A stretch of 64,000 nt of DNA. Source: an uncultured SAR86 cluster bacterium (GTDB taxonomy: Bacteria; Pseudomonadota; Gammaproteobacteria; Magnimaribacterales; D2472). The stretch is from the NCBI GenBank assembly GCA_902547695.1, contig CACCOR010000005.1, positions 17,431 through 81,430 of the forward strand. Reading direction: 5' to 3'. The notes under the pieces were generated by a model. It worked only from the letters and a program-made list of their open reading frames with translations. It was not told where the DNA came from and did no database searches. How positions within the stretch are numbered: the first letter of the stretch is position 1; the number at the start of each line of letters is the position of its first letter. A program made the position numbers and the translations under genes. Positions 3,703 through 17,670 of the stretch are shown here, in pieces.

Positions 3703-3862
3703 TTTTGCATTTAATTCTTTTTATGAGGCCTTATATATGAATGGTCATGGATTGTATGTTTGGAGCGTAGTAATACTAGTTTTTATTAGTTTATTAGGCT
3801 TTTTTATAGGCTACACTGTAAAAATTAAAAAAATTAAAGATAAATTAAATGAACCCAATTAG
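3695..3862 (+). CDS. ccmD: Heme exporter protein CcmD (55 aa, absent from the ORF track)
   Basis: Translated by hand: MFNFAFNSFYEALYMNGHGLYVWSVVILVFISLLGFFIGYTVKIKKIKDKLNEPN. MxGxxxYVW motif, one TM helix, basic tail; overlaps ccmC and ccmE. Confidence 0.88.
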   Translation: MFNFAFNSFYEALYMNGHGLYVWSVVILVFISLLGFFIGYTVKIKKIKDKLNEPN

Positions 3863-4259
3863 AAAGAAAAGAATATACAGCATTCTTTTTGTACTTTTAT
3901 TTTCAATTTCAGGTATTTCACTAATTCTTTATTCATTAAACTCAAATTTAGATTATTTTTTTACGCCAACAGAACTTAAAGATAGAAATATTCCGGCTGA
4001 TAAAAGAATTAAGGTTGGTGGCATGGTTTTAAGTGGATCAGTAGAAAGAATTTCATCTTCAATTTCTTTTGTCATCACTGATTATGAAAACTCAATTAAA
4101 GTTGAATATGAGGGTATAGTTCCAGATTTATTTAAAGAAGATAGCGGTGTAGTCGTTTTAGGAAATTTAAAAGATAAAATATTGTATGCAGAAGAAGTTT
4201 TAGCCAAGCATGATGAAAACTATATGCCTCCGAATATTGTGATAAGTGATGATAATTGA
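3849..4259 (+). CDS. ccmE: Heme chaperone CcmE
   Basis: MNPIRKKR N-terminus, PDLFKE, and heme-binding motif LAKHDENYMP. Confidence 0.95.
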   Translation: MNPIRKKRIYSILFVLLFSISGISLILYSLNSNLDYFFTPTELKDRNIPADKRIKVGGMVLSGSVERISSSISFVITDYENSIKVEYEGIVPDLFKEDSGVVVLGNLKDKILYAEEVLAKHDENYMPPNIVISDDN

Positions 4260-6144
4260 AATCTCTCATTTTTTATCAATTTTAGCTACTGGCTTATTTT
4301 TACTCGTTGGTTATTTTTCTATCCTTACTCCTTCATCAAATTCTAGCTACATATCAAACTTGATTGTTAGAACGTATTCGCATGGGTTCTTTTTTCTTCT
4401 ATCCTCATTTTTAATATATGTTTGGCTGGCTATTACAGATAATTTTAGTGTTCAATATATTGCAAATCACTCCAATACAGCCCTACCAATTTTTTATAAA
4501 ATTTCTTCGATATGGAGCGCACATGAAGGTTCAATGTTTCTTTGGATTGTTTTTTTATCTCTATGGGGATTCCTATTCAATATTAGGGTAAAAAATAGTG
4601 AAGTTTTAAAGCCTAAAACAATGGGAGTAATTTCCTTCATATTAGTTGGATTTTTAATATTTTTGTTAGCAACATCAAATCCTTTTGTAACAATACTTCC
4701 AATTCCACCTTTAAATGGAGCTGATATTAATCCAGTTTTGCAAGATCCTGCTTTAGCAATTCATCCTCCAACTCTTTACTTGGGATACGTCGGATTTGTA
4801 ATTCCGTTTGCTTGCGCAATAGCTTTTTTACTCTACGGCGATTCCAAAATAAACTGGGAAGCTTTAGTAAAAACATGGTCAGTTTCTGCATGGGTTTTTC
4901 TTACAATTGGTATAACTCTTGGCAGTTGGTGGGCTTATTATGAATTGGGTTGGGGAGGATATTGGTTTTGGGATCCAGTTGAAAATGTCGCATTAATGCC
5001 TTGGCTTGCAGCTACTGCATTTATTCATTCTCTTGGAGTATCAATAAAATCATCGCAACTTAGAATTTGGACAATTTTATTATCAATTTTAGTGTTTTCG
5101 CTCAGTTTGTTCGGCGCATTTATTGTTAGATCTGGAATTATTGATAGCGTTCATGCTTTTGCAAATGATCCTGACAGAGGTCTATATCTTCTTGGATTCA
5201 TTGGATTAATTGTTTTCATATCAGTTTCTTTGTTTATTTTGAGATTATCAAGCATTCAATCCCTATCGAGAATTAAGAAATTTTCAAAACAATCATTTAT
5301 TTCTATAAATAATATTCTTTTTGGAGCTCTTATCTTTTCCGTGATGTTGGGTGTTACGTATCCATTAATTTATGAATTTTTATTTGATCAAAAAATTAGT
5401 GTTGGCGCGCCTTTTTATAATGCAATATTTATCCCAATAGTTGTTTTAGCTGCAATTTTTTTGTTTTTCTCAGTCGATTCAAAATGGTCAAGAAGCATTA
5501 ACCTCAAACTCATTTCGACGCCAATATCTTTTTCAATTTTATTATCGTTAGCATTTACTCTATTTGTTATGCAATATTTTGAATCTAAGAGTATTTCAAT
5601 ACTTGCTTCGATATTTGCAGGCTCATTGATTATATTTAGATACATATATGAAATTATTAACTTTATTTTTAGTAAGAAATTTATAAATCCTTTTAGCGTC
5701 ATAGCTCATATGTCACTTGGATTACTTTTAATATCCATTTCATTCAATAGTCTTTTGAGTACTGAAAGAGCTTTAAGTATTGATTTGAATAGTACTGAGG
5801 CATACAAGGACTTAAAAATTTCTTTTAAAGATATTGGTGTGGAAAATAATGCCAATTATGATTCAATAAAAGCAACATTTCTTGTGGAAGATCAAACCGG
5901 AAGAACATTTAATCTCAAGCCAGAAAAAAGAAGATATTTTACTAGAGGTCAAATTACTACAGAAACAGCAATACATGTAACAGTTTTGAGAGATATTTAC
6001 ATAACAATTGGAGATCAACTTGATGATGGAAGTTGGATTGTGAATATCCAAATTAACTACTTAATAAGATGGATTTGGTTATCAGCATTATTGATGGGTT
6101 TAGCTGGAATAATATTAGTTTTTTCACACAGGGTTAAAACATGA
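4246..6144 (+). CDS. ccmF: Cytochrome c heme lyase CcmF
   Basis: WSAHEGS, HPPTLYLGYVG, WAYYELGWGGYWFWDPVEN, SVHAFA. Confidence 0.96.
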   Translation: MMIIEISHFLSILATGLFLLVGYFSILTPSSNSSYISNLIVRTYSHGFFFLLSSFLIYVWLAITDNFSVQYIANHSNTALPIFYKISSIWSAHEGSMFLWIVFLSLWGFLFNIRVKNSEVLKPKTMGVISFILVGFLIFLLATSNPFVTILPIPPLNGADINPVLQDPALAIHPPTLYLGYVGFVIPFACAIAFLLYGDSKINWEALVKTWSVSAWVFLTIGITLGSWWAYYELGWGGYWFWDPVENVALMPWLAATAFIHSLGVSIKSSQLRIWTILLSILVFSLSLFGAFIVRSGIIDSVHAFANDPDRGLYLLGFIGLIVFISVSLFILRLSSIQSLSRIKKFSKQSFISINNILFGALIFSVMLGVTYPLIYEFLFDQKISVGAPFYNAIFIPIVVLAAIFLFFSVDSKWSRSINLKLISTPISFSILLSLAFTLFVMQYFESKSISILASIFAGSLIIFRYIYEIINFIFSKKFINPFSVIAHMSLGLLLISISFNSLLSTERALSIDLNSTEAYKDLKISFKDIGVENNANYDSIKATFLVEDQTGRTFNLKPEKRRYFTRGQITTETAIHVTVLRDIYITIGDQLDDGSWIVNIQINYLIRWIWLSALLMGLAGIILVFSHRVKT

Positions 6145-6662
6145 ACTTATTATTAAAATTAATAGTTTTCATAGTTCCAACAACTTTTATATTATTATTT
6201 TTTATGATTTTAACTAATGAAGATACATATCCTGGTGCCGATTATAATCAATTTCAGATTCCTGAATTTGAATTAAAAGTTCTTGATAATTCAATGACAG
6301 TTGACAATGACCTTTTAGATGGCGACTACGTCTTAAATGTATGGGCTAGCTGGTGTATAACTTGCATCATAGAACATCCTTACCTAACAAGCTTAAGTAA
6401 AAATGGCGTACCTATTATTGGACTAAATTATAAAGATGAACAAGAAGATGCCATCTTTTGGTTAAAAAAATATGGCAACCCATATCAGACAATATTGCAT
6501 GATTATAAAGGAAACTTGGCACTTGATTTGGGTGTGACAGGGGCGCCAGAAACATTTTTGATAAGCGATGGCAAAGTTATTGCTCATTATCAAGGTGAGG
6601 TAAATGATCAAATATGGAATGATGTCTTTTTGCCAATCATTAAAGATAGGAAAATGTTTTAG
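6141..6662 (+). CDS. ccmG: Thiol:disulfide interchange protein CcmG/DsbE
   Basis: NVWASWCITC, GLNYKD, GVTGAPETF. Confidence 0.92.
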   Translation: MNLLLKLIVFIVPTTFILLFFMILTNEDTYPGADYNQFQIPEFELKVLDNSMTVDNDLLDGDYVLNVWASWCITCIIEHPYLTSLSKNGVPIIGLNYKDEQEDAIFWLKKYGNPYQTILHDYKGNLALDLGVTGAPETFLISDGKVIAHYQGEVNDQIWNDVFLPIIKDRKMF

Positions 6663-7031
6663 ATGAGATATTTATATACATTCATATTATTCTTATCATT
6701 TAATATTTCATCAGACAACTTATATTATTTTGAAGATGAGTATGATGAAAATAGATTTAATAATTTAATAAAAGATATAAGATGCCCTAAATGTACTTCT
6801 GGCTCTTTATCAAGTTCAAATGCTCCAATATCTGAAGATTTAAAAATCAAGATTGCAGAAATGATCAATGAAAACAAAACTGATCAAGAAATTAAAGACT
6901 ATGTTTCGTCAAGATTTGGACAAGATTCTTTATATGAACCTGAGTTAAATAATACAACCTATGTTTTATGGTATTCTCCATTCGTTTTTTTACTTTTAGC
7001 TTTTTTAATTTTTTTCTTTAGAAAAAAATAA
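6663..7031 (+). CDS. ccmH: Cytochrome c biogenesis protein CcmH
   Basis: IRCPKC motif and C-terminal LWYSP plus TM helix. Confidence 0.9.
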   Translation: MRYLYTFILFLSFNISSDNLYYFEDEYDENRFNNLIKDIRCPKCTSGSLSSSNAPISEDLKIKIAEMINENKTDQEIKDYVSSRFGQDSLYEPELNNTTYVLWYSPFVFLLLAFLIFFFRKK

Positions 7032-7816
7032 TGTTTATTTTTTATTTATTAACAATACTGGCTGCTTTGCCAATAATTGCTTATGTTTTGGCTCAAAAAA
7101 CCTTAAACAAAGGATTGATCTTTGGATCATCATTGTTAATCCTTTCCTTATGCCTATTTATATTTATAAGTAAATTTGCATTTGTTGGTTCCTTTGAAAA
7201 ACAAAAACTAAATAATAAAATTTTTGATGAAATTTATATTGACTCATCAATATCTGTTGAATATCTTCAACAACTAGAGAATATTCTTGATGAAGATGAA
7301 TTGAAGAATTGGCTATTAGGGCTAATTGGCAAATCAATAGATTTAAAGAAACTCAAGTCAGCTGAGAGTTTAATAGCTTTTTCAGAGAGATTCTTCATAT
7401 CAAATAATGAAAAACTTATCTTTTATAACTTATATTCTGCTTTAAGAGATGAGAAATTTCCTAAATTTAAGAACTCTAGTTTTCAGATAGACTCTAGTTC
7501 ATTGTATCCGTGCTCTATTAAAAATGTAGAAGTTACTCTTTTCATAACAAATGGTCCTGAAATACCGATTGCAAAAAAAGAATTCAAAAATAAAGATAAT
7601 ATTTCATTAAATAATCTTGATAGTGTGATACCTGGATTTGATTTAGCATCTGCATATTTAAATCAAGAATCTATTGAGATGAAAATCAAAATAAATTGCT
7701 TGGATGATCAGCAAACATTTTTTGTACAAAACATAATAGTTCTTAATCAAGATGTCCCCTCTAATTCATACAAAATTAATTTAAATGAATGGTTTAAAAC
7801 CCCACAAGAGTTATAA
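7031..7816 (+). CDS. Divergent CcmI/CycH-like protein
   Basis: Follows ccmH. Two N-terminal TM helices. C-terminal GPEIPIAKK...LNNLDSVIPGFDL resembles the CcmI GPxMPLA...LxDxxxMxPxxxL domain. Confidence 0.55.
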   Translation: MFIFYLLTILAALPIIAYVLAQKTLNKGLIFGSSLLILSLCLFIFISKFAFVGSFEKQKLNNKIFDEIYIDSSISVEYLQQLENILDEDELKNWLLGLIGKSIDLKKLKSAESLIAFSERFFISNNEKLIFYNLYSALRDEKFPKFKNSSFQIDSSSLYPCSIKNVEVTLFITNGPEIPIAKKEFKNKDNISLNNLDSVIPGFDLASAYLNQESIEMKIKINCLDDQQTFFVQNIIVLNQDVPSNSYKINLNEWFKTPQEL

Positions 7817-10040: not shown

Positions 10041-10664
10041 ATGAGCGTAAATTCAGAGATATATCTAATAGGACTGGCTATTTTGATATTTCTTATAATT
10101 ACTTTTTTGTTCATTAGAAAAGTCTCAAATGATGGTAAGTTAAAAGTTAAAATTGAGAAAGTCCAAGATTCATCCGATTTAAATATTTCAGATGAGCCAC
10201 ATAAAAATCAACAATCTTTTGATTTTGAAATAAATCAGTCAAAAGAACAGGAATTAGTAATACTAAATTTAATTTCTATGGATAGATCTATGTTTGACAT
10301 GGATCAATTGTTTGATTTTTTATCAAATTATGGAGCAAAAACTGTGAATAATTATTTTGCTTTTTATCAAGATAATAAACTAGAAAAATTTCGGGTTATA
10401 AACGCTTTAAAACCAGGAACTTTTGAAGATGAAACTAAATCATTTGCAATTGCAGTTGTATCTGATTTAAATGTTGTAGATGATCCTTTAAATACAGTGA
10501 AACAAATGATCGAATTTTCAATTAATTTTGCAGAAAAATTTTATGCAACACTTTGTGATCAAGATAGAACTCCAATAACAAAACAAATGATCTCACACAT
10601 AGAGTCTAGAGCTCAAGATATAGCAAGATTAAAACAACTAAATATTTCTGATGAGGAAAATTAA
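10041..10664 (+). CDS. zipA: Cell division protein ZipA (short form)
   Basis: N-terminal TM helix, short linker, C-terminal domain with NALKPGTF and LCDQDRTPITKQ; conserved position after smc. Confidence 0.78.
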   Translation: MSVNSEIYLIGLAILIFLIITFLFIRKVSNDGKLKVKIEKVQDSSDLNISDEPHKNQQSFDFEINQSKEQELVILNLISMDRSMFDMDQLFDFLSNYGAKTVNNYFAFYQDNKLEKFRVINALKPGTFEDETKSFAIAVVSDLNVVDDPLNTVKQMIEFSINFAEKFYATLCDQDRTPITKQMISHIESRAQDIARLKQLNISDEEN

Positions 10665-10668
10665 ATAA

Positions 10669-11955
10669 ATGATAGAACCTTGGAAGATTATTGTAGAACT
10701 TGAAAGTGATAACAGTCGATTGTTTAAAGAGGGAGTAATAGAAAAGTTCCTTAACGATAAAACCTTTCAAGAGGGGCTTGTTATGTGTTTAGATCCTTTG
10801 ACTACATTTGGAGTTAAACAAGTACCAGAATGCATTGAAGATGGAGCAGGTCTAGATTGGAGTGATTTTAAAAAAGCTGCAAATCAATTAATAGATAGAG
10901 ACAAAACTGGCCATGCTGCAAGAGATTTGATTATTGAATTAATTGAGTCATCAAAGACAGATCAGTGGAATGATTGGTATAGAAGAATTCTCATCAAGGA
11001 CCTAAGATGTGGAGTAAGTGAAAAGACAGTAAATAACGTTGCAAAAAAAATGGACTTGGAATTCAGAGTACCTATTTTTTCATGCATGTTAGCTCATGAT
11101 GGCGCTAAGCATCCAAAAAAAATTAGAGGCGATTGTTTGGTAGAGTACAAATATGATGGTGTAAGAGTTATTGCGATTGTTAAAAATGGAAGGGCTACTT
11201 TATACAGTCGAAATGGAAAGATATTTAACAATTTTCCACATATTGAAAGCGCTCTAAGTAAAAAAGAATTTAATAATCTTGTTTTCGATGGAGAGGTGAT
11301 GAGCGATGATTTTCAGGCTTTAATGAAACAAGTTTATAGAAAATCTGGAGCAAAAACTGACGATGCTTATCTTGCTTTGTTTGATATTCTTCCACTCAAA
11401 GAATTTAATAATGGAAAAAGTATACTAACTTCAATTGAAAGAAAAGAACAACTTAATGAATTAGCTAAATTATTTGATGATGCAATAAAGCTTGTAGATT
11501 ATGAAATTATTAACTTTGATAATGATGATGGAAAAGCTAAATTTTCTAATATGAACAAAGAAGCACTTGAAAAAGGCTTTGAAGGCCTAATGATTAAACC
11601 GAATGATAATTTTTATGAGTGTAAAAGAAGTCATGCTTGGTTAAAAATTAAACCTTTCATTGAGGTAACGCTTAAGGTTATTGATATTCAAGAGGGGTCA
11701 GGGAAGCATGAGGGTAAGTTAGGTGCATTTCATGTAGAAGGCAAAGATGATGGTAAGTTCTTTTCTTTAAGTGTTGGAAGTGGCCTTACTGATGATGACA
11801 GAGAAAGATTTTGGGCTGCTAAAGATAAACTTATTGGAAGAATGGTAGAAATTAGAGCAGATGCTATAACTCAAAGTATTGAGGGCGAGCACTATAGCTT
11901 AAGATTTCCAAGATTTAAAAACTTTAGAGGATTTAAAGAGGATGAAAAGATTTAA
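10669..11955 (+). CDS. ATP-dependent DNA ligase (phage-type architecture)
   Basis: Motif I EYKYDGVR, III FDGE, IIIa LFDIL, IV EGLMIK, V WLKIK, OB-domain VGSGL and VI LRFPRF. No Zn finger, HhH or BRCT domain as in LigA. Confidence 0.93.
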   Translation: MIEPWKIIVELESDNSRLFKEGVIEKFLNDKTFQEGLVMCLDPLTTFGVKQVPECIEDGAGLDWSDFKKAANQLIDRDKTGHAARDLIIELIESSKTDQWNDWYRRILIKDLRCGVSEKTVNNVAKKMDLEFRVPIFSCMLAHDGAKHPKKIRGDCLVEYKYDGVRVIAIVKNGRATLYSRNGKIFNNFPHIESALSKKEFNNLVFDGEVMSDDFQALMKQVYRKSGAKTDDAYLALFDILPLKEFNNGKSILTSIERKEQLNELAKLFDDAIKLVDYEIINFDNDDGKAKFSNMNKEALEKGFEGLMIKPNDNFYECKRSHAWLKIKPFIEVTLKVIDIQEGSGKHEGKLGAFHVEGKDDGKFFSLSVGSGLTDDDRERFWAAKDKLIGRMVEIRADAITQSIEGEHYSLRFPRFKNFRGFKEDEKI

Positions 11956-12547
11956 GTATAGTTACTTCCTATTAATAATATTGATCATTCAATCTTGTGC
12001 TACAAGACCTCCTGAGAATCCTGACAATATATGTCTGATTTTTAAAGAAAAAAGAAGTTGGTACAAAGCAGTCATTAAAAGCGAAAAAAGATGGAAAATA
12101 CCACCTTATGTATTGATGTCATTTGTTCATCAAGAGTCAAGTTTCCAAGCAGATGCCAGACCTGATAGAGATAAAATCCTTGGTTTTATACCTTGGTTTA
12201 GACCGTCTTCTGCTGTTGGATATTCTCAAGCACTTACTAAAACCTGGGAGGATTATAAGGATGAGACTGGAAATACTAGGGCGAACAGAAAAGATTTTGC
12301 AGATTCAGCAGACTTTATAGGTTGGTACGCAAGCAAGGGTTACTATCAAGGTTTTGAGAGGACTGATGCAAGGTCACTGTATTTAGCATATCACGAGGGT
12401 TATACAGGGTTTGAAAGAAAAACTTATCGAAAAAAACAATGGTTAATAAAAGTTGCAGATAGAGTTCAAGCAAGATCAACCAAGTATCAAAAACAGTATT
12501 GGGGTTGTGAAAAAGATTTAAAAAGGAAGAAATTTATATTTTTTTAA
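11942..12547 (+). CDS. Lysozyme-like (transglycosylase SLT-type) lipoprotein
   Basis: Lipobox IQSC; HQESSF catalytic Glu; SSAVGYSQA; LYLAYHEG. Confidence 0.8.
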   Translation: MKRFKYSYFLLIILIIQSCATRPPENPDNICLIFKEKRSWYKAVIKSEKRWKIPPYVLMSFVHQESSFQADARPDRDKILGFIPWFRPSSAVGYSQALTKTWEDYKDETGNTRANRKDFADSADFIGWYASKGYYQGFERTDARSLYLAYHEGYTGFERKTYRKKQWLIKVADRVQARSTKYQKQYWGCEKDLKRKKFIFF

Positions 12548-15412
12548 TTAAATATTTTGTATTTTGAAATTTAATTTTTTCATCTCATCAATATAATTTT
12601 CGCCAGCAATGACAGATTTCTTTGATTCATTAAACAAATATTTTTGAGAGACATTTACTAGATCATCAAGTGAACAGCTTTTTACTAATGATCTAATTCT
12701 TAATCTTGCGTCTAAATCTTTTTTATCAAGATTCATAGAGAAATCACTCATCGCCTCTCCAAATGGAGATAGCGGCTTATCTATACTTGATATTATTCCT
12801 AAAACACCCTCGTCAAGCTGCTCTTGAGTAATATTTTTGAGCGACCATTCTCTGGATTTTTGAAACTCTTCAAACGTTTCAGAACATCTTGGATCACGAT
12901 ATGAAAAGAATTTAAATACTTTGTTATTGGAGTCTTGCATCGCTCCGGAACCATAAGCCCCACCTTTCTCTCTGATTGCTGAATGTAAATACCCATTTCT
13001 TAAAACAGCACCTAAAACGCTCAAAGCCGGCGCATCTTTATGAAAAAAATCGACCGTCGGAAAAGCCTCAGCACAATAAGTAACTTGAGCACCTGTAATC
13101 CATCCTATGGATTCTTCTTGTATATCAAAATAATTCTGAACACTAAAGTTAGTATCTTTATCGTCAAACTCAAAGTTAATATTTGAGTGATCTATGTCAA
13201 GAGAAGATGCAGTAAATGAATAAGATGGGTTTGAATCAATTTTATTTTTTATACCATTTAATAATTGAATGTACTTATCAAGATTAGATTGCGTTTCGAT
13301 ATTCTTTGAGAGCTTGTTTGTATTGGTAATAAAATTTATACCTGATACGAAATCATTGGTAGCTGAAATGTTATTAATTTGAGCTGCAGCATTGCTCATA
13401 GAAAGAATATGTCCATTTTGTATTAAAGACTTTTCATTATCTGATGATATGAAGTTAAGCATATCTTTAATTCTATTTTTATCAGAAAAATTTGAGTTCT
13501 TTGCAGTTTCAATCATTAAATCTTGCATTTTCTTTTCATTATCTTCTAGTGATTTAGATGTGATTTTTAATCCTAAAGAATGAGTCGATTGATTATCATC
13601 TGGAATGAGTGTAAAACTTGCTGAAATACCCCCAGTTACCGCAGACTGCATTTTTTGTACATCCTCATAGCTTTTATCACCAATCCCAACATCAGTTAAT
13701 GTATTTGTAAATAACGAAGCAATTTTTAACTCCTCTTTAGTCAGCGGATCGCATGGAAGAATTATTGAATGATAAGTAATGCCATTTGTACCAACGTTGT
13801 AATAAAAATTTTTATTGTCATTTTTAAAAGATTGAGATTTTGCATATTCTCGAGATTTTGGTATGTCTGCTTTAGTTACCTTGGGTAAAATTTCTGGATT
13901 ATCAGATTTTTCTTGTCTAGCTTTTAGGTTTTTAGCTAGTTCAATTATTCTTTCTTTGTCATCAACGGACAAGTTTTTTGATTTTTGATCAATTTTTGCT
14001 TGGATTTCCATTTCTTTTTTTGAATTGAATTCAATATCAGGCGCAAGGCAGTAGTTCACTCTATGTTGATTATTAATAATTTTCTTTTCAATAAGATTTT
14101 CAATATAGTTTTCTTTTTTAAGATTATTTTTAATTACATCAAATGATGCATCTAGATCTAAGACTCTAAGAGGGTCATCATTGTGTAAGCAGGCTGGAAG
14201 ACAACCTAACATAATTTGAAGACCATAAGGCATACCGGAACCCGTTATCTCTCTTTGTTTTATTTCAAGTTGATGAAGTGATGATTGAACAAGTTCTTCA
14301 GAAATGCCATTTGAGACAACATTTTTTAAACAATTTAGAATTAATTCTTCAACCTCAAGTTGCTTATTGGAATCTACACCTTCAAGACCTGCAGCAAATA
14401 CTAGCTCTTTATGATCAGCTTCTAGACCAGTTAATGGAGATAAAGATTTACCTAAATCGGTATTTTCAAGCGTCTTTCTTAAAGGCGATGCAGAATTATC
14501 TAAAAGTATGTTTGAAACTAAATACGATTCTAATAACTCTACTGGATTATGACTTTCTCCCAAAAGCCAGCTTAATACGACATGATGATTATTTTCATCT
14601 TCTGGCATGGGATTATAGTATTCGGTAATAGTTTTTGGTTCACTTATTCTATTTTCGTTTTTCACACTTATAGTCTCAGATGATGGCTGAAAGCTTTTTA
14701 AAACATTCTCATTTATGAATTCTTGAATTTCAGTAGGATCAACGTTACCAAATGTAAAAAAAGTTGCATTCGACGGGTGATAATGTTTTTTATGGAACTC
14801 TACAAGGTAATCATGGGTTAGATCTATAATGTTTTCAGGATTTCCACCACTATTATGTTTATAAGTTGATGAGTTATATAGGTGCTTTGATAGACCATGC
14901 CACAACTGGCTAGTTATAGAGCTCATAGCTCCTTTCATTTCATTGAAAACCACCCCTTTAATTTCTAAATCGCTATCTGCGTTATTACTTTCGGAGAATT
15001 CGAGCCTATGGCCTTCCTGAAGGAAATCAAGTTCATCTAAATTTGGAAAGAAAGAAGAATCTAAATAAACACTTAAAAGGTTATTAAAGTCTTTATCATT
15101 TTGTGTGGCAAAAGGATATGCTGTCCAATCACTTGAAGTAAAAGCATTCATAAACGTATTTAAAGATCTTCTTATCATCATGAAAAATGGATCTCTGACA
15201 GGATACTTTTTTGATCCACATAGAGCTGTATGCTCTAAGATATGTGCAACTCCAGTTGAATCTTCAGGAATAGTTCTAAAGGCAACCATAAAGACTTTTT
15301 CATCACTTTTTGAATCTAGATGAATATGCTTGCAATTGAAATTAGATTCAGTATATATTTGAGCATTAAGGTCTAATAATTTAATATATTTCTGATCTTC
15401 TAAGTTAAACAT
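12548..15412 (-). CDS. M16C insulinase-family metallopeptidase (PreP-like)
   Basis: Inverted zinc motif HILEH, GVVFNEMKG, IREKGGAYG, SYRDP. Confidence 0.92.
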   Translation of the reverse strand: MFNLEDQKYIKLLDLNAQIYTESNFNCKHIHLDSKSDEKVFMVAFRTIPEDSTGVAHILEHTALCGSKKYPVRDPFFMMIRRSLNTFMNAFTSSDWTAYPFATQNDKDFNNLLSVYLDSSFFPNLDELDFLQEGHRLEFSESNNADSDLEIKGVVFNEMKGAMSSITSQLWHGLSKHLYNSSTYKHNSGGNPENIIDLTHDYLVEFHKKHYHPSNATFFTFGNVDPTEIQEFINENVLKSFQPSSETISVKNENRISEPKTITEYYNPMPEDENNHHVVLSWLLGESHNPVELLESYLVSNILLDNSASPLRKTLENTDLGKSLSPLTGLEADHKELVFAAGLEGVDSNKQLEVEELILNCLKNVVSNGISEELVQSSLHQLEIKQREITGSGMPYGLQIMLGCLPACLHNDDPLRVLDLDASFDVIKNNLKKENYIENLIEKKIINNQHRVNYCLAPDIEFNSKKEMEIQAKIDQKSKNLSVDDKERIIELAKNLKARQEKSDNPEILPKVTKADIPKSREYAKSQSFKNDNKNFYYNVGTNGITYHSIILPCDPLTKEELKIASLFTNTLTDVGIGDKSYEDVQKMQSAVTGGISASFTLIPDDNQSTHSLGLKITSKSLEDNEKKMQDLMIETAKNSNFSDKNRIKDMLNFISSDNEKSLIQNGHILSMSNAAAQINNISATNDFVSGINFITNTNKLSKNIETQSNLDKYIQLLNGIKNKIDSNPSYSFTASSLDIDHSNINFEFDDKDTNFSVQNYFDIQEESIGWITGAQVTYCAEAFPTVDFFHKDAPALSVLGAVLRNGYLHSAIREKGGAYGSGAMQDSNNKVFKFFSYRDPRCSETFEEFQKSREWSLKNITQEQLDEGVLGIISSIDKPLSPFGEAMSDFSMNLDKKDLDARLRIRSLVKSCSLDDLVNVSQKYLFNESKKSVIAGENYIDEMKKLNFKIQNI

Positions 15413-15954: not shown

Positions 15955-17670
15955 TTGCATAAATTCTTTAAAATATTTTTAATACTTGTCGTCGTTACAG
16001 GATGTTCAAATTCTGATAGTAAAAAAATTGATATTCCTTATTCATCTGAAGTTGAAGATCTTATTCTTCATTCGGAAGAATTTGAGCAAAAAATATTATC
16101 TTATGATACTCCTGGCGGACTCATTCACTTTGCAATTGGATTTGGCATTGCAAATTCAATAATGGTTGAGGGTAATGGTGGCAACATCATTATTGATGCT
16201 GCTGATAGCATGTACGAGGCGGAAAAGGTCTATAACTTATTCAAACAAAAAAATTCAAATCCGATTAAAGCGATTATTTACACTCATAACCATGGAGATC
16301 ATACTTTTGGAACACAATATTATCTTAATATTCAAGAAGAAAGGCCACAAATCATTGCTCATGAAGATACTGACTTTTATGTTCAAAGAATAATGGGGAT
16401 TCTTAATCCTATTATTGCTGCTCGTAGCACAAGAATGTTTGGCACTACCTTACCTGAAGAAGATTTAATCAATGTTGGCATAGGTCCAAACTTAAGTGTT
16501 TCAAAATCACCAACAGGATATGTAAAGCCAGATTTAACCTTTGAAGATGAACTAAAAATCAATATTTCTGGTATAGAAATTGAGATGTATCATGCGCCTG
16601 GTGAAACAAATGATCAGATTTTTGTATGGTTGCCTAATCACAAGTCTCTAATGCCAGGAGATAATGTATATAAGACTTTTCCAAACTTATACACCATAAG
16701 AGGCACCACACATAGAGATGTAAAAGGCTGGATAGAAAGCCTAGATCATATGAAAACATTTAATCCAGAATTTCTTTTTCCAAGTCACACCAAACCAATT
16801 ATAGGAAAGGATGTAATACAAGATGTCTTAAATGTTTACAGAGATGCTATTCAATATGTTCACGACCAAACAATTAGATTAATGAATCAAGGAATGTATC
16901 CAGATGAGATTGCCGAAAAGATAGAATTACCCGATAGCATAGTAAATTCCCCATATTTAAAAGAATTTTATGGAACTGTTAGATGGTCTGTTAAGAGCAT
17001 ATTTAATGGATACTTAGGATGGTTTAGCGGTAATCCATCTGAATTAGATCCGCTTTCTAGAGAAGAAAAAGCAAAAAGAGTATTAAATCTTGCTGGAGAC
17101 ATAAATGTTTTGATTGAGGATCTAAGGATTGCGGTTAGTAATAATGATATGCAATGGGCACTTGAACTAAGTGATTATTTAATCGCATTAGATAATTTTA
17201 CCGAGGAAGTAAGAAACTTAAGAATAGATGCTTTGTTATACGAAGGTTCAAGATCATCAAATCCAAATAAAAGAAACTATTTTTTAACCTCAGCTTTTGA
17301 GTTGAGCTCAGATTATGATGAACCTTCATTGTTAGATAGGACTTCTGAAGAACTATTAGAATATATTTCAATGAGTACATTATTTGATGTTTTATCTACA
17401 AGATATAATCCGAAAAATATTGAAGAAAACATAACTGTTTGTTTTATTTTTTCTTCAGGATTAATAAAAAACATTACCATAAGAAATCAAGTAGCAGTTA
17501 TCAGTAATTCAAATCAAGATATTTGCTCGATTACTGTTTTGACCGACGAAATAGAACTTAAAAAAGTTTTAACTGGACTATCTAATCCCGTTACATCTAT
17601 TGCATCAGGAGACATGCAAATAGAAGGAGGTTCGGTTGAATTTCTCCAATTCCTAAGCAAATTTAGATAA
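15955..17670 (+). CDS. Alkyl sulfatase (SdsA/BDS1 family, MBL fold), lipoprotein
   Basis: THNHGDH, APGETND, FPNLYTIRGT, YLGWFSGNP, SCP2-like C-terminus; lipobox VTGC. Confidence 0.88.
   Translation: MHKFFKIFLILVVVTGCSNSDSKKIDIPYSSEVEDLILHSEEFEQKILSYDTPGGLIHFAIGFGIANSIMVEGNGGNIIIDAADSMYEAEKVYNLFKQKNSNPIKAIIYTHNHGDHTFGTQYYLNIQEERPQIIAHEDTDFYVQRIMGILNPIIAARSTRMFGTTLPEEDLINVGIGPNLSVSKSPTGYVKPDLTFEDELKINISGIEIEMYHAPGETNDQIFVWLPNHKSLMPGDNVYKTFPNLYTIRGTTHRDVKGWIESLDHMKTFNPEFLFPSHTKPIIGKDVIQDVLNVYRDAIQYVHDQTIRLMNQGMYPDEIAEKIELPDSIVNSPYLKEFYGTVRWSVKSIFNGYLGWFSGNPSELDPLSREEKAKRVLNLAGDINVLIEDLRIAVSNNDMQWALELSDYLIALDNFTEEVRNLRIDALLYEGSRSSNPNKRNYFLTSAFELSSDYDEPSLLDRTSEELLEYISMSTLFDVLSTRYNPKNIEENITVCFIFSSGLIKNITIRNQVAVISNSNQDICSITVLTDEIELKKVLTGLSNPVTSIASGDMQIEGGSVEFLQFLSKFR

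Follow-up and report, generated by a model that had tools for sequence, protein, structure and literature searches.

An ATP-dependent DNA ligase of probable phage origin in the ligA slot of SAR86 bacteria

The DNA studied here is a stretch of 64,000 nucleotides (nt), called the window, from an uncultured SAR86 cluster bacterium (positions 17,431 to 81,430 of contig CACCOR010000005.1, assembly GCA_902547695.1). The window has a G+C content of about 31%, and its source assembly holds 1.01 Mb in 30 contigs and is 75% complete. Between zipA and a lytic transglycosylase gene (SLT_4) lies a gene for an ATP-dependent DNA ligase, Table 1. The zipA stop codon (TAA, 10662-10664) is followed by four nucleotides, ATAA, and then directly by the ATG of the ligase, with a GAGGA about 12 nt upstream of this start. 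The SLT_4 gene forms the downstream border of the slot in which the ligase has been swapped. The ligase gene runs in the same direction as smc-zipA and SLT_4, with hardly any space between them, so that co-transcription and translational coupling with these genes are probable.

A first-pass annotation, made from the letters of this DNA, had described an ATP-dependent ligase of 428 amino acids (aa) that starts 4 nt after zipA and overlaps the next gene; our coordinates, the Pfam matches and the 14-nt overlap agree with this. Its statement that no ligA remnant, Ku gene or phage genes lie nearby also holds. The adenylation domain of LigA (PF01653) has no match in the whole assembly, the LigA OB domain (PF03120) has none there either, and Ku (PF02735) is not found in this genome. 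The slot contains no ligA remnant, which would not fit into the 4-nt spacer. Seven of eight neighbouring open reading frames (ORFs) scanned with Pfam belong to cellular families (ccmE, ccmF, redoxin, ccmH, M16 peptidase, DUF4136, alkyl sulfatase), and neither phage-type genes nor an Lhr/MPE operon was found among these neighbours. No signal peptide had been reported, and none is visible by eye in the N-terminus (MIEPWKIIVELESDNSRL...), which has no hydrophobic leader.

Two Pfam families match the ligase, PF01068 (6e-23, residues 149-328) and PF14743 (5.6e-12, residues 342-420). In a phmmer search of the PDB chains, residues 6-428 align over the full length with residues 10-442 of 6rau (E 3e-131), and 6ras and 6rar are matched as well. 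These entries are the ATP-dependent ligase of Prochlorococcus marinus, with a DNA-binding (DB) domain, according to a passage of PMC6698739. This enzyme, Pmar-Lig or AD-Lig P, has been shown biochemically to be an ATP-dependent nick sealer (10.1101/2020.05.11.089284), and a passage of a 2020 review places it in the NT-OB-2 group (PMC7470946). The window ligase is 49-52% identical to Pmar-Lig. Its AlphaFold2 (AF2) model, with a pLDDT of 90.6, shows a helical N-terminus followed by the adenylation domain and the OB domain. The top Foldseek matches are Pmar-Lig 6rar (E 1e-55, 49% identity) and 6ras, followed by the T4 ligase 6dt1 (22%, TM 0.62). The helical N-terminal domain is covered by no Pfam model; in the alignments it falls on the DB domain region of Pmar-Lig.

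Across 24 diverse homologues K161, D163, G164, R166, R181, D207-G208-E209 and F238-D239 are invariant, as are E305-G306, K310, K326 and K328. Lysine 161 is what we take to be the KxDG lysine of motif I. In the C-terminal RFPRF motif S410, L411 and F413 are invariant in the same homologues, and R412 and P414 nearly so. Neither LigA domains (PF01653, PF03120, zinc finger, HhH, BRCT) nor PrimPol or phosphoesterase domains are among the Pfam matches of the protein. By the motifs of PF01068, the presence of PF14743, the helical DB domain and the collinearity over the full length, the window ligase is predicted to be of the Pmar-Lig / AD-Lig P type.

Table 1. Genes and protein domains at the ligase locus (window positions).
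Feature	Position	Strand	Evidence
ATP-dependent DNA ligase ORF, 428 aa, ATG start	10669-11955	+	PF01068 + PF14743
N-terminal alpha-helical DNA-binding domain, residues ~4-127	10678-11049	+	AF2: seven helices, H4-12 to H118-127
Nucleotidyltransferase (adenylation) domain	11113-11652	+	PF01068; K161 (codon 11149-11151) in EYKYDGVR
OB-fold domain (OB_2 type) with C-terminal RFPRF motif	11692-11928	+	PF14743
ccmE	3849-4259	+	PF03100
ccmF	4246-6144	+	PF16327/PF01578
Redoxin/ccmG-like gene	6141-6662	+	PF08534
ccmH	6663-7031	+	PF03918
ORF	7031-7816	+	no Pfam match
smc, 732 aa	7842-10040	+	PF02463 SMC_N 1.2e-57, residues 3-716
zipA, 207 aa	10041-10664	+	PF04354 ZipA_C 6.7e-12
SLT_4 lytic transglycosylase gene	11942-12547	+	PF19489 7.2e-73; overlaps ligase 3' end by 14 nt
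M16-family (PreP-like) peptidase gene	12548-15412	-	PF08367, PF05193, PF22516, PF00675

To see what fills this slot in related bacteria, we compared the genus of the window (g1, 27 genomes: G000-G024, G065 and G066), its family (f1) and three sister families (f2-f4). In the sister families zipA, LigA and SLT_4 are adjacent on one strand in 16/16 genomes. In f1 a ligase gene follows zipA directly in all 40 loci retrieved, 21 of the ATP type and 19 LigA, which answers the call of the first-pass annotation to map which ligase follows zipA. Whichever type is present, SLT_4 comes next in 39/40 loci, and the exception stops at a contig end. The gene order is identical in 21/21 loci of the ATP type, which come from different species and include single-contig genomes of 1.2-1.3 Mb. 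Among the 48 genomes of f1 that are at least 85% complete, 23 have only LigA, 23 only the ATP ligase, none both and two neither. The LigA adenylation domain was found in none of the 27 g1 genomes. The replacement of ligA in its own slot, as it had been read from the window alone, is thus borne out: LigA is not found in this genome and its 26 congeners, and the sister families keep it at that position.

Of the genomes with at least 80% completeness, 33/75 in f1 carry the ATP ligase, vs 0/30 in f2, 0/29 in f3 and 0/20 in f4. Within f1 it is found in 17/19 genomes of g1, 13/15 of g16, 1/1 of g15, 1/6 of g13 and 1/5 of g14, and in none of the others. The replacement is therefore confined to some members of one SAR86 family. 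The carriers in a genome scan include SCGC AAA076-P13 and AAA168-P09; AAA076-P13 and D2472 are SAR86 cluster genera, among the most prevalent in the data sampled in a passage of PMC9771814. The LigA proteins of the relatives are 661-740 aa long, measured as open-frame lengths, vs 428 aa for the ATP ligase. In one f2 genome (G025, L145:1244-3103) the slot between zipA and SLT_4 holds a highly divergent NAD-type ligase of 619 aa. Its PF01653 match scores 67 bits vs about 300 in relatives, and its OB and BRCT domains are recognised, with no zinc-finger or HhH match.

Trees were built from the genes upstream of the slot (ccmG-like, ccmH, the 7031-7816-type ORF and smc, concatenated) and downstream of it (SLT_4, M16 peptidase and DUF4136). 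Both recover the genus codes, and each needs at least four changes of ligase type, on the branches starred in it. The ligase of G058, a g13 genome, lies inside a g16 subclade (100/100), with 86-88% identity, and g16 alone forms a clade in 0/200 bootstrap trees. In its seven flanking genes the identity is 48-88% to G059 (g13, with LigA) vs 31-75% to g16, and its flanks pair with those of G059 at a support of 100. Likewise, the ligase of G061 (g14) groups with g1 and g15 (96/94), and its flanks group with g14. These switches, together with a ligase placed inside the clade of another genus, show that the cassette has passed from one SAR86 genus to another. As the tree of LigA agrees with that of the flanks, LigA is the state inherited vertically, and it is the ATP cassette that moves.

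To trace where the ligase came from, we searched a library of sequences clustered at 50%, in which 926 clusters match the family at E<=1e-30, and built a quick tree of 154 rows and a careful tree of 54 rows, which agree on the placement of SAR86. In a separate homologue search, the 120 matches listed are near-identical marine sequences, all at least 84% identical. The SAR86 ligases fall in a single clade (100/99), whose sister (97/88) is formed by the ligases of two IMG/VR contigs, L024 and L041. At 56-58% identity, phage-contig ligases are the closest sequence relatives of the window ligase outside SAR86. The contigs L024 (137 kb) and L041 (65 kb) are bona fide T4-like phage contigs, with a T4 gp23 capsid gene at 1e-145 and 1e-150. 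SAR86 together with L024 and L041 is nested in further IMG/VR clades (100/98, 97/94, 99/98). Phage derivation had been proposed for the gene, and these nearest relatives on T4-like marine phage contigs speak for it.

The close kinship is with uncultured T4-like marine phages, and the ligase is only distantly like that of T4 itself. The identity to T4 gp30 is 22%, and its phmmer match is partial (7.9e-11, residues 238-376). Among cultured phages 1448 records matched, with a best identity of 29-35% (Lysinibacillus and Bacillus phages), and no cultured donor was found. Beside the ligase, L024 (11811-15784) and L041 (6682-7770) encode two RNA ligases, of the kinds of T4 Rnl1 and Rnl2, and a polynucleotide kinase, which together with the DNA ligase make up an RNA/DNA end-repair gene cluster. 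A nearly identical relative of the ligases on the IMG/VR contigs L025-L027 is found on L058, a 12.7-kb contig of a MAG (metagenome-assembled genome) named Candidatus Pacearchaeota archaeon; this contig is probably viral and was binned into the archaeal MAG.

The opposite direction of transfer, from SAR86 to phages, or a cellular donor such as Prochlorococcus, an alphaproteobacterial clade or another bacterium, would change only the origin of the gene. Such an origin finds some room in the trees, as three cellular clades and viral contigs fall together in one clade (98 in the quick tree, 84/94 in the careful tree), the root depends on the outgroups chosen, and several of the 'viral' contigs are short and unverified. 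Against it, SAR86 sits inside four successive branches of viral contigs, at the supports given above, and the clade of SAR86 and phage contigs (99/98) excludes both the cyanobacterial (Prochlorococcus) and the alphaproteobacterial ligases. The diversity of the 926 clusters is also far above that of the three cellular clades. We consider a non-phage source unlikely.

The genome scan used patterns from an alignment of six sequences, and both peptide patterns misfit the Prochlorococcus sequence. Prochlorococcus was reached through a sample of the cyanobacterial phylum, in which 5/301 genomes matched; four small cyanobacterial genomes carry a ligase that hardly differs from 6rau (947 bits). The sister of the cyanobacterial ligases (99/96) is another IMG/VR clade, of which one contig (L035) carries a T4 gp9/10-like gene. 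As each has its own phage-contig sister, SAR86 and Prochlorococcus appear to have acquired their ligases separately, from different T4-like phage lineages.

Prochlorococcus is also the best known case for comparison. In its high-light (HL) strains the NAD ligase is replaced by an ATP ligase, which was called the first example, occupies the NAD-ligase position of relatives downstream of recA, and is one of 2-3 ATP ligases (10.1101/2020.05.11.089284). Pmar-Lig (PDB 6RAR, 6RAS, 6RAU, 6RCE) has the same family and architecture as the SAR86 ligase, with a helical DB domain, PF01068 and PF14743. Both are streamlined surface-ocean bacteria in which the full-length NAD ligase is missing and an ATP ligase is in its position. 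They differ in phylum and in the slot, downstream of recA in one and between zipA and SLT_4 in the other. Unlike Prochlorococcus, SAR86 has no truncated NAD-ligase fragment (no PF01653 match) and no second ATP ligase vs 2-3 in the HL strains, and its ligase gene is polymorphic and laterally mobile among genera. With a single ATP ligase, the conclusion that it is the sole ligase is cleaner in SAR86. The parallel drawn by the first-pass annotation is correct insofar as the acquisition was separate; the cases are not merely parallel, however, as the two ligases belong to the same Pmar-Lig family.

A third group of carriers came from the genome scan, which found 48-50% identical homologues with conserved synteny on long contigs of marine Alphaproteobacteria (L141:6001-7317 in G081; L060-L068, L071, L077-L088, L140-L144). 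The titles of these records include Pelagibacteraceae bacterium, Rickettsiales bacterium MED715 and MED657, AG-892-K07 and others. PF01653 has a match in 0/8 carriers, in genomes of unstated completeness. It is absent from 24/25 near kin of G081 vs present in 16/16 farther kin, and a full-length homologous ligase is found in 17/25 of the near kin. This clade shows the same loss of LigA with the same ligase family. Many of its genomes encode another ATP ligase, about 530 aa long. A replacement within the slot could not be seen here, as no neighbour of the ATP ligase matched the LigA loci of the farther kin.

The sole LigA among the near kin is in G101, on a 16.5-kb contig (L139, G101:C24) with a GC of 0.34 vs 0.27 and the gene order ccmG-ccmH-smc-zipA-LigA-SLT_4. 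The contig is probably a mis-binned gammaproteobacterial one, from the taxonomic order of SAR86. The start of the alphaproteobacterial ligase gene overlaps a Cas4/DUF83-like nuclease gene (L141:5274-6005) by 4 nt, and a radical SAM gene resembling spore photoproduct lyase (SPL) lies just upstream of this pair (L141:3769-4734). The three genes may form a repair module.

The last observation touches on the role of the SAR86 enzyme, which could serve only repair or recombination while Okazaki fragments are joined by an unrecognised enzyme. ATP-dependent ligases are accessory repair enzymes in most bacteria, and were additional to the NAD ligase 'in all cases', according to passages of the 2020 review (PMC7470946); the alphaproteobacterial homologue beside a Cas4-like nuclease and an SPL-like gene would fit such a role. 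No other DNA ligase gene, however, is recognisable in the assembly of the window. In 10/11 genomes searched, PF01068 has exactly one match, the ligase next to zipA, and in the eleventh (G066) this copy is cut by a contig end. PF01653 (27 g1 genomes) and PF03120 (five genomes) have no match, and the gene sits in the slot of the replicative ligase. It is under strong purifying selection, with a dN/dS of 0.04-0.09 at an unsaturated dS of 0.17-0.55, like smc, zipA and SLT_4. Ku and the PrimPol and phosphoesterase domains are missing, and we know of no other class of nick-sealing enzyme in bacteria. A role limited to repair is thus very unlikely.

An even smaller chance is left for an intact ligA that escaped assembly or is too divergent to be recognised, with the ATP ligase as an accessory. 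What speaks for it is the 75% completeness of the window's assembly, which leaves the absence of ligA to be judged mainly from its relatives, and the divergent LigA of G025, which shows that such sequences exist in the order. Also, five g1 MAGs without the ATP ligase lack zipA and SLT_4 too, and the whole locus is therefore unassembled there. The relatives are more complete: seven of 26 congeners reach at least 90% (97, 96, 94, 93, 91, 90 and 90%), two of them in two contigs. The g1 genomes without LigA include G002 (97%), G019 (96%), G066 (94%) and G010 (93%). Beyond the 27 g1 genomes, PF01653 has no match in G064, G072 and G061, each a single-contig genome, and PF03120 is found in 0/5 genomes, two of them single-contig and one the window's assembly. 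As positive controls, the same PF01653 search finds LigA in 16/16 sister-family and 11/14 control genomes, even in the divergent G025. The ancestral slot is filled by the ATP ligase behind a 4-nt spacer, and both types occur together in 0/48 genomes.

That the gene owes its place to faulty assembly or binning, or belongs to a prophage or island, as its phage-borne closest outside relatives and the foreign contigs held in MAG bins (the LigA contig of G101) could suggest, is practically dismissed by the same order in 21/21 loci, single-contig genomes included, by the cellular Pfam-matched neighbours, by a GC of 0.327 and a GC at third codon positions (GC3) of 0.217 that match the flanks, and by the low dN/dS. 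Contigs from four marine metatranscriptome libraries span the ligase gene and bridge both junctions, with 1-2 of 30 bins without coverage in the contig sets X3, X5 and X6, a weak hint that the gene is expressed.

Taken together, we find it very likely that ligA was displaced in situ by a phage-derived ATP ligase that is now the sole ligase, and that this gene later spread between SAR86 genera. Several points weigh against this. All the genomes compared are MAGs or single-amplified genomes, and that of the window is incomplete, as said. In G019, a genome 96% complete in two contigs with no other ligase, the ligase gene (L107, ~7400, G019:C1) is split by a 1-nt deletion in a T run, with both halves otherwise intact; we take the deletion for an assembly error, but it may instead be a real and very recent frameshift. 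The phage-to-host direction is suggested by the nesting in the trees and the outgroup root. The gp23 gene is on two of five IMG/VR records searched and was not found on the fragments L038, L039 and L020; L038 has only one PHROG, of unassigned function, and L020 carries PhoH, an exonuclease and glycosyltransferases. The hint of a recombination breakpoint in G058 is weak, as it is the outermost 30-residue windows of zipA and SLT_4 that look more g16-like. The RNA evidence consists of Logan contigs, which show presence in RNA libraries, where carry-over of DNA is possible. A scan for promoters and terminators gave 25 promoter-like sites vs 27 ± 5.2 expected from shuffles, which is no better than chance. 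Finally, the use of ATP, nick sealing and essentiality are predicted from the roughly 50% identity to Pmar-Lig.

By homology, the ligase would adenylate itself on K161 with ATP, hand the AMP on to the 5' phosphate at a nick with the duplex clamped, and seal the nick in a third step. As the sole ligase it would serve both in joining Okazaki fragments and in closing repair nicks. The nesting of the trees suggests that a lineage of T4-like marine phages gave the gene to SAR86 a single time, with the ancestral NAD-dependent ligA displaced exactly between zipA and the SLT_4 gene. The cassette would later have reached this slot in other SAR86 genera, with recombination in the conserved flanks as the most likely route.

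Compared with the gammaproteobacterial smc-zipA-ligA arrangement, the SAR86 ATP ligase has the same slot, orientation, neighbours and presumed job. It shares neither sequence nor domain kinship with LigA, and its predicted cofactor is ATP and not NAD+. T4 gp30 (PDB 6DT1) shares the three-domain fold and the compact helical DB domain, and is a structural relative rather than an orthologue; the SAR86 ligase is a fixed chromosomal gene. The bacterial ATP ligases LigB, LigC, LigD and LigE belong to the same nucleotidyltransferase superfamily, LigE shares the OB_2 type, and all four occur as accessory enzymes alongside LigA, as far as passages of PMC7470946 describe them; the SAR86 ligase occurs without LigA. 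The type of LigD and non-homologous end joining does not fit, with no Ku in the genome and no PrimPol or phosphoesterase modules. Neither does LigE (a core of ~260-300 aa with a signal peptide), as the SAR86 protein has 428 aa and a helical N-terminus, and matches 4d05 only in part (residues 261-379).

The neighbourhood of the slot is well conserved. The genes ccmE-ccmF-redoxin-ccmH (3849-7031) are part of a syntenic block whose order is repeated in the family loci, smc lies upstream of zipA in 39/40 of these (the remaining one is cut by a contig end), and the M16 peptidase is kept in 37/40. The SMC protein of the window is unusually short with its 732 aa. The short form is found in the window and in g1, g14, g15 and g10, and in g16, g11 and g13 the SMC alignment spans about 1000 residues. 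In some SAR86 lineages the coiled coil has apparently become shorter.

NAD-dependent LigA is viewed as a target for antibacterials and as the replicative ligase that is universal and essential in bacteria. In the literature searched (open-licence PMC and bioRxiv) high-light Prochlorococcus is the only reported exception that we found, in a 2020 preprint, and no paper describes the loss of LigA in SAR86 or marine Alphaproteobacteria; SAR86 would be a further case, with the same enzyme family. Judged by comparison of genomes, there is good support for an in situ displacement of its replicative ligase by a non-orthologous one, a barely documented kind of event. SAR86 is among the most abundant heterotrophic groups of the ocean, according to a passage of PMC9771814.

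Our confidence is evenly divided on a broader reading, in which the same phage-borne ligase family displaces LigA repeatedly in abundant streamlined bacteria of the surface ocean and is still spreading in SAR86 like an advantageous allele. As part of that reading, and held no more firmly, the family would have entered at least three unrelated lineages, namely high-light Prochlorococcus, part of SAR86 and a clade of marine Alphaproteobacteria. If this is true, the cofactor choice of bacterial ligases would be under ecological selection and not frozen. Possible drivers are a protein that is ~35-40% smaller, the lack of a zinc finger, the sparing of NAD+ and a higher specific activity. The locus would document the transfer of a core replication function from phage to host. 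Closely related SAR86 genomes that differ in which ligase fills one slot offer a natural experiment, and their distribution makes the question of why bacteria use NAD+ for ligation testable.

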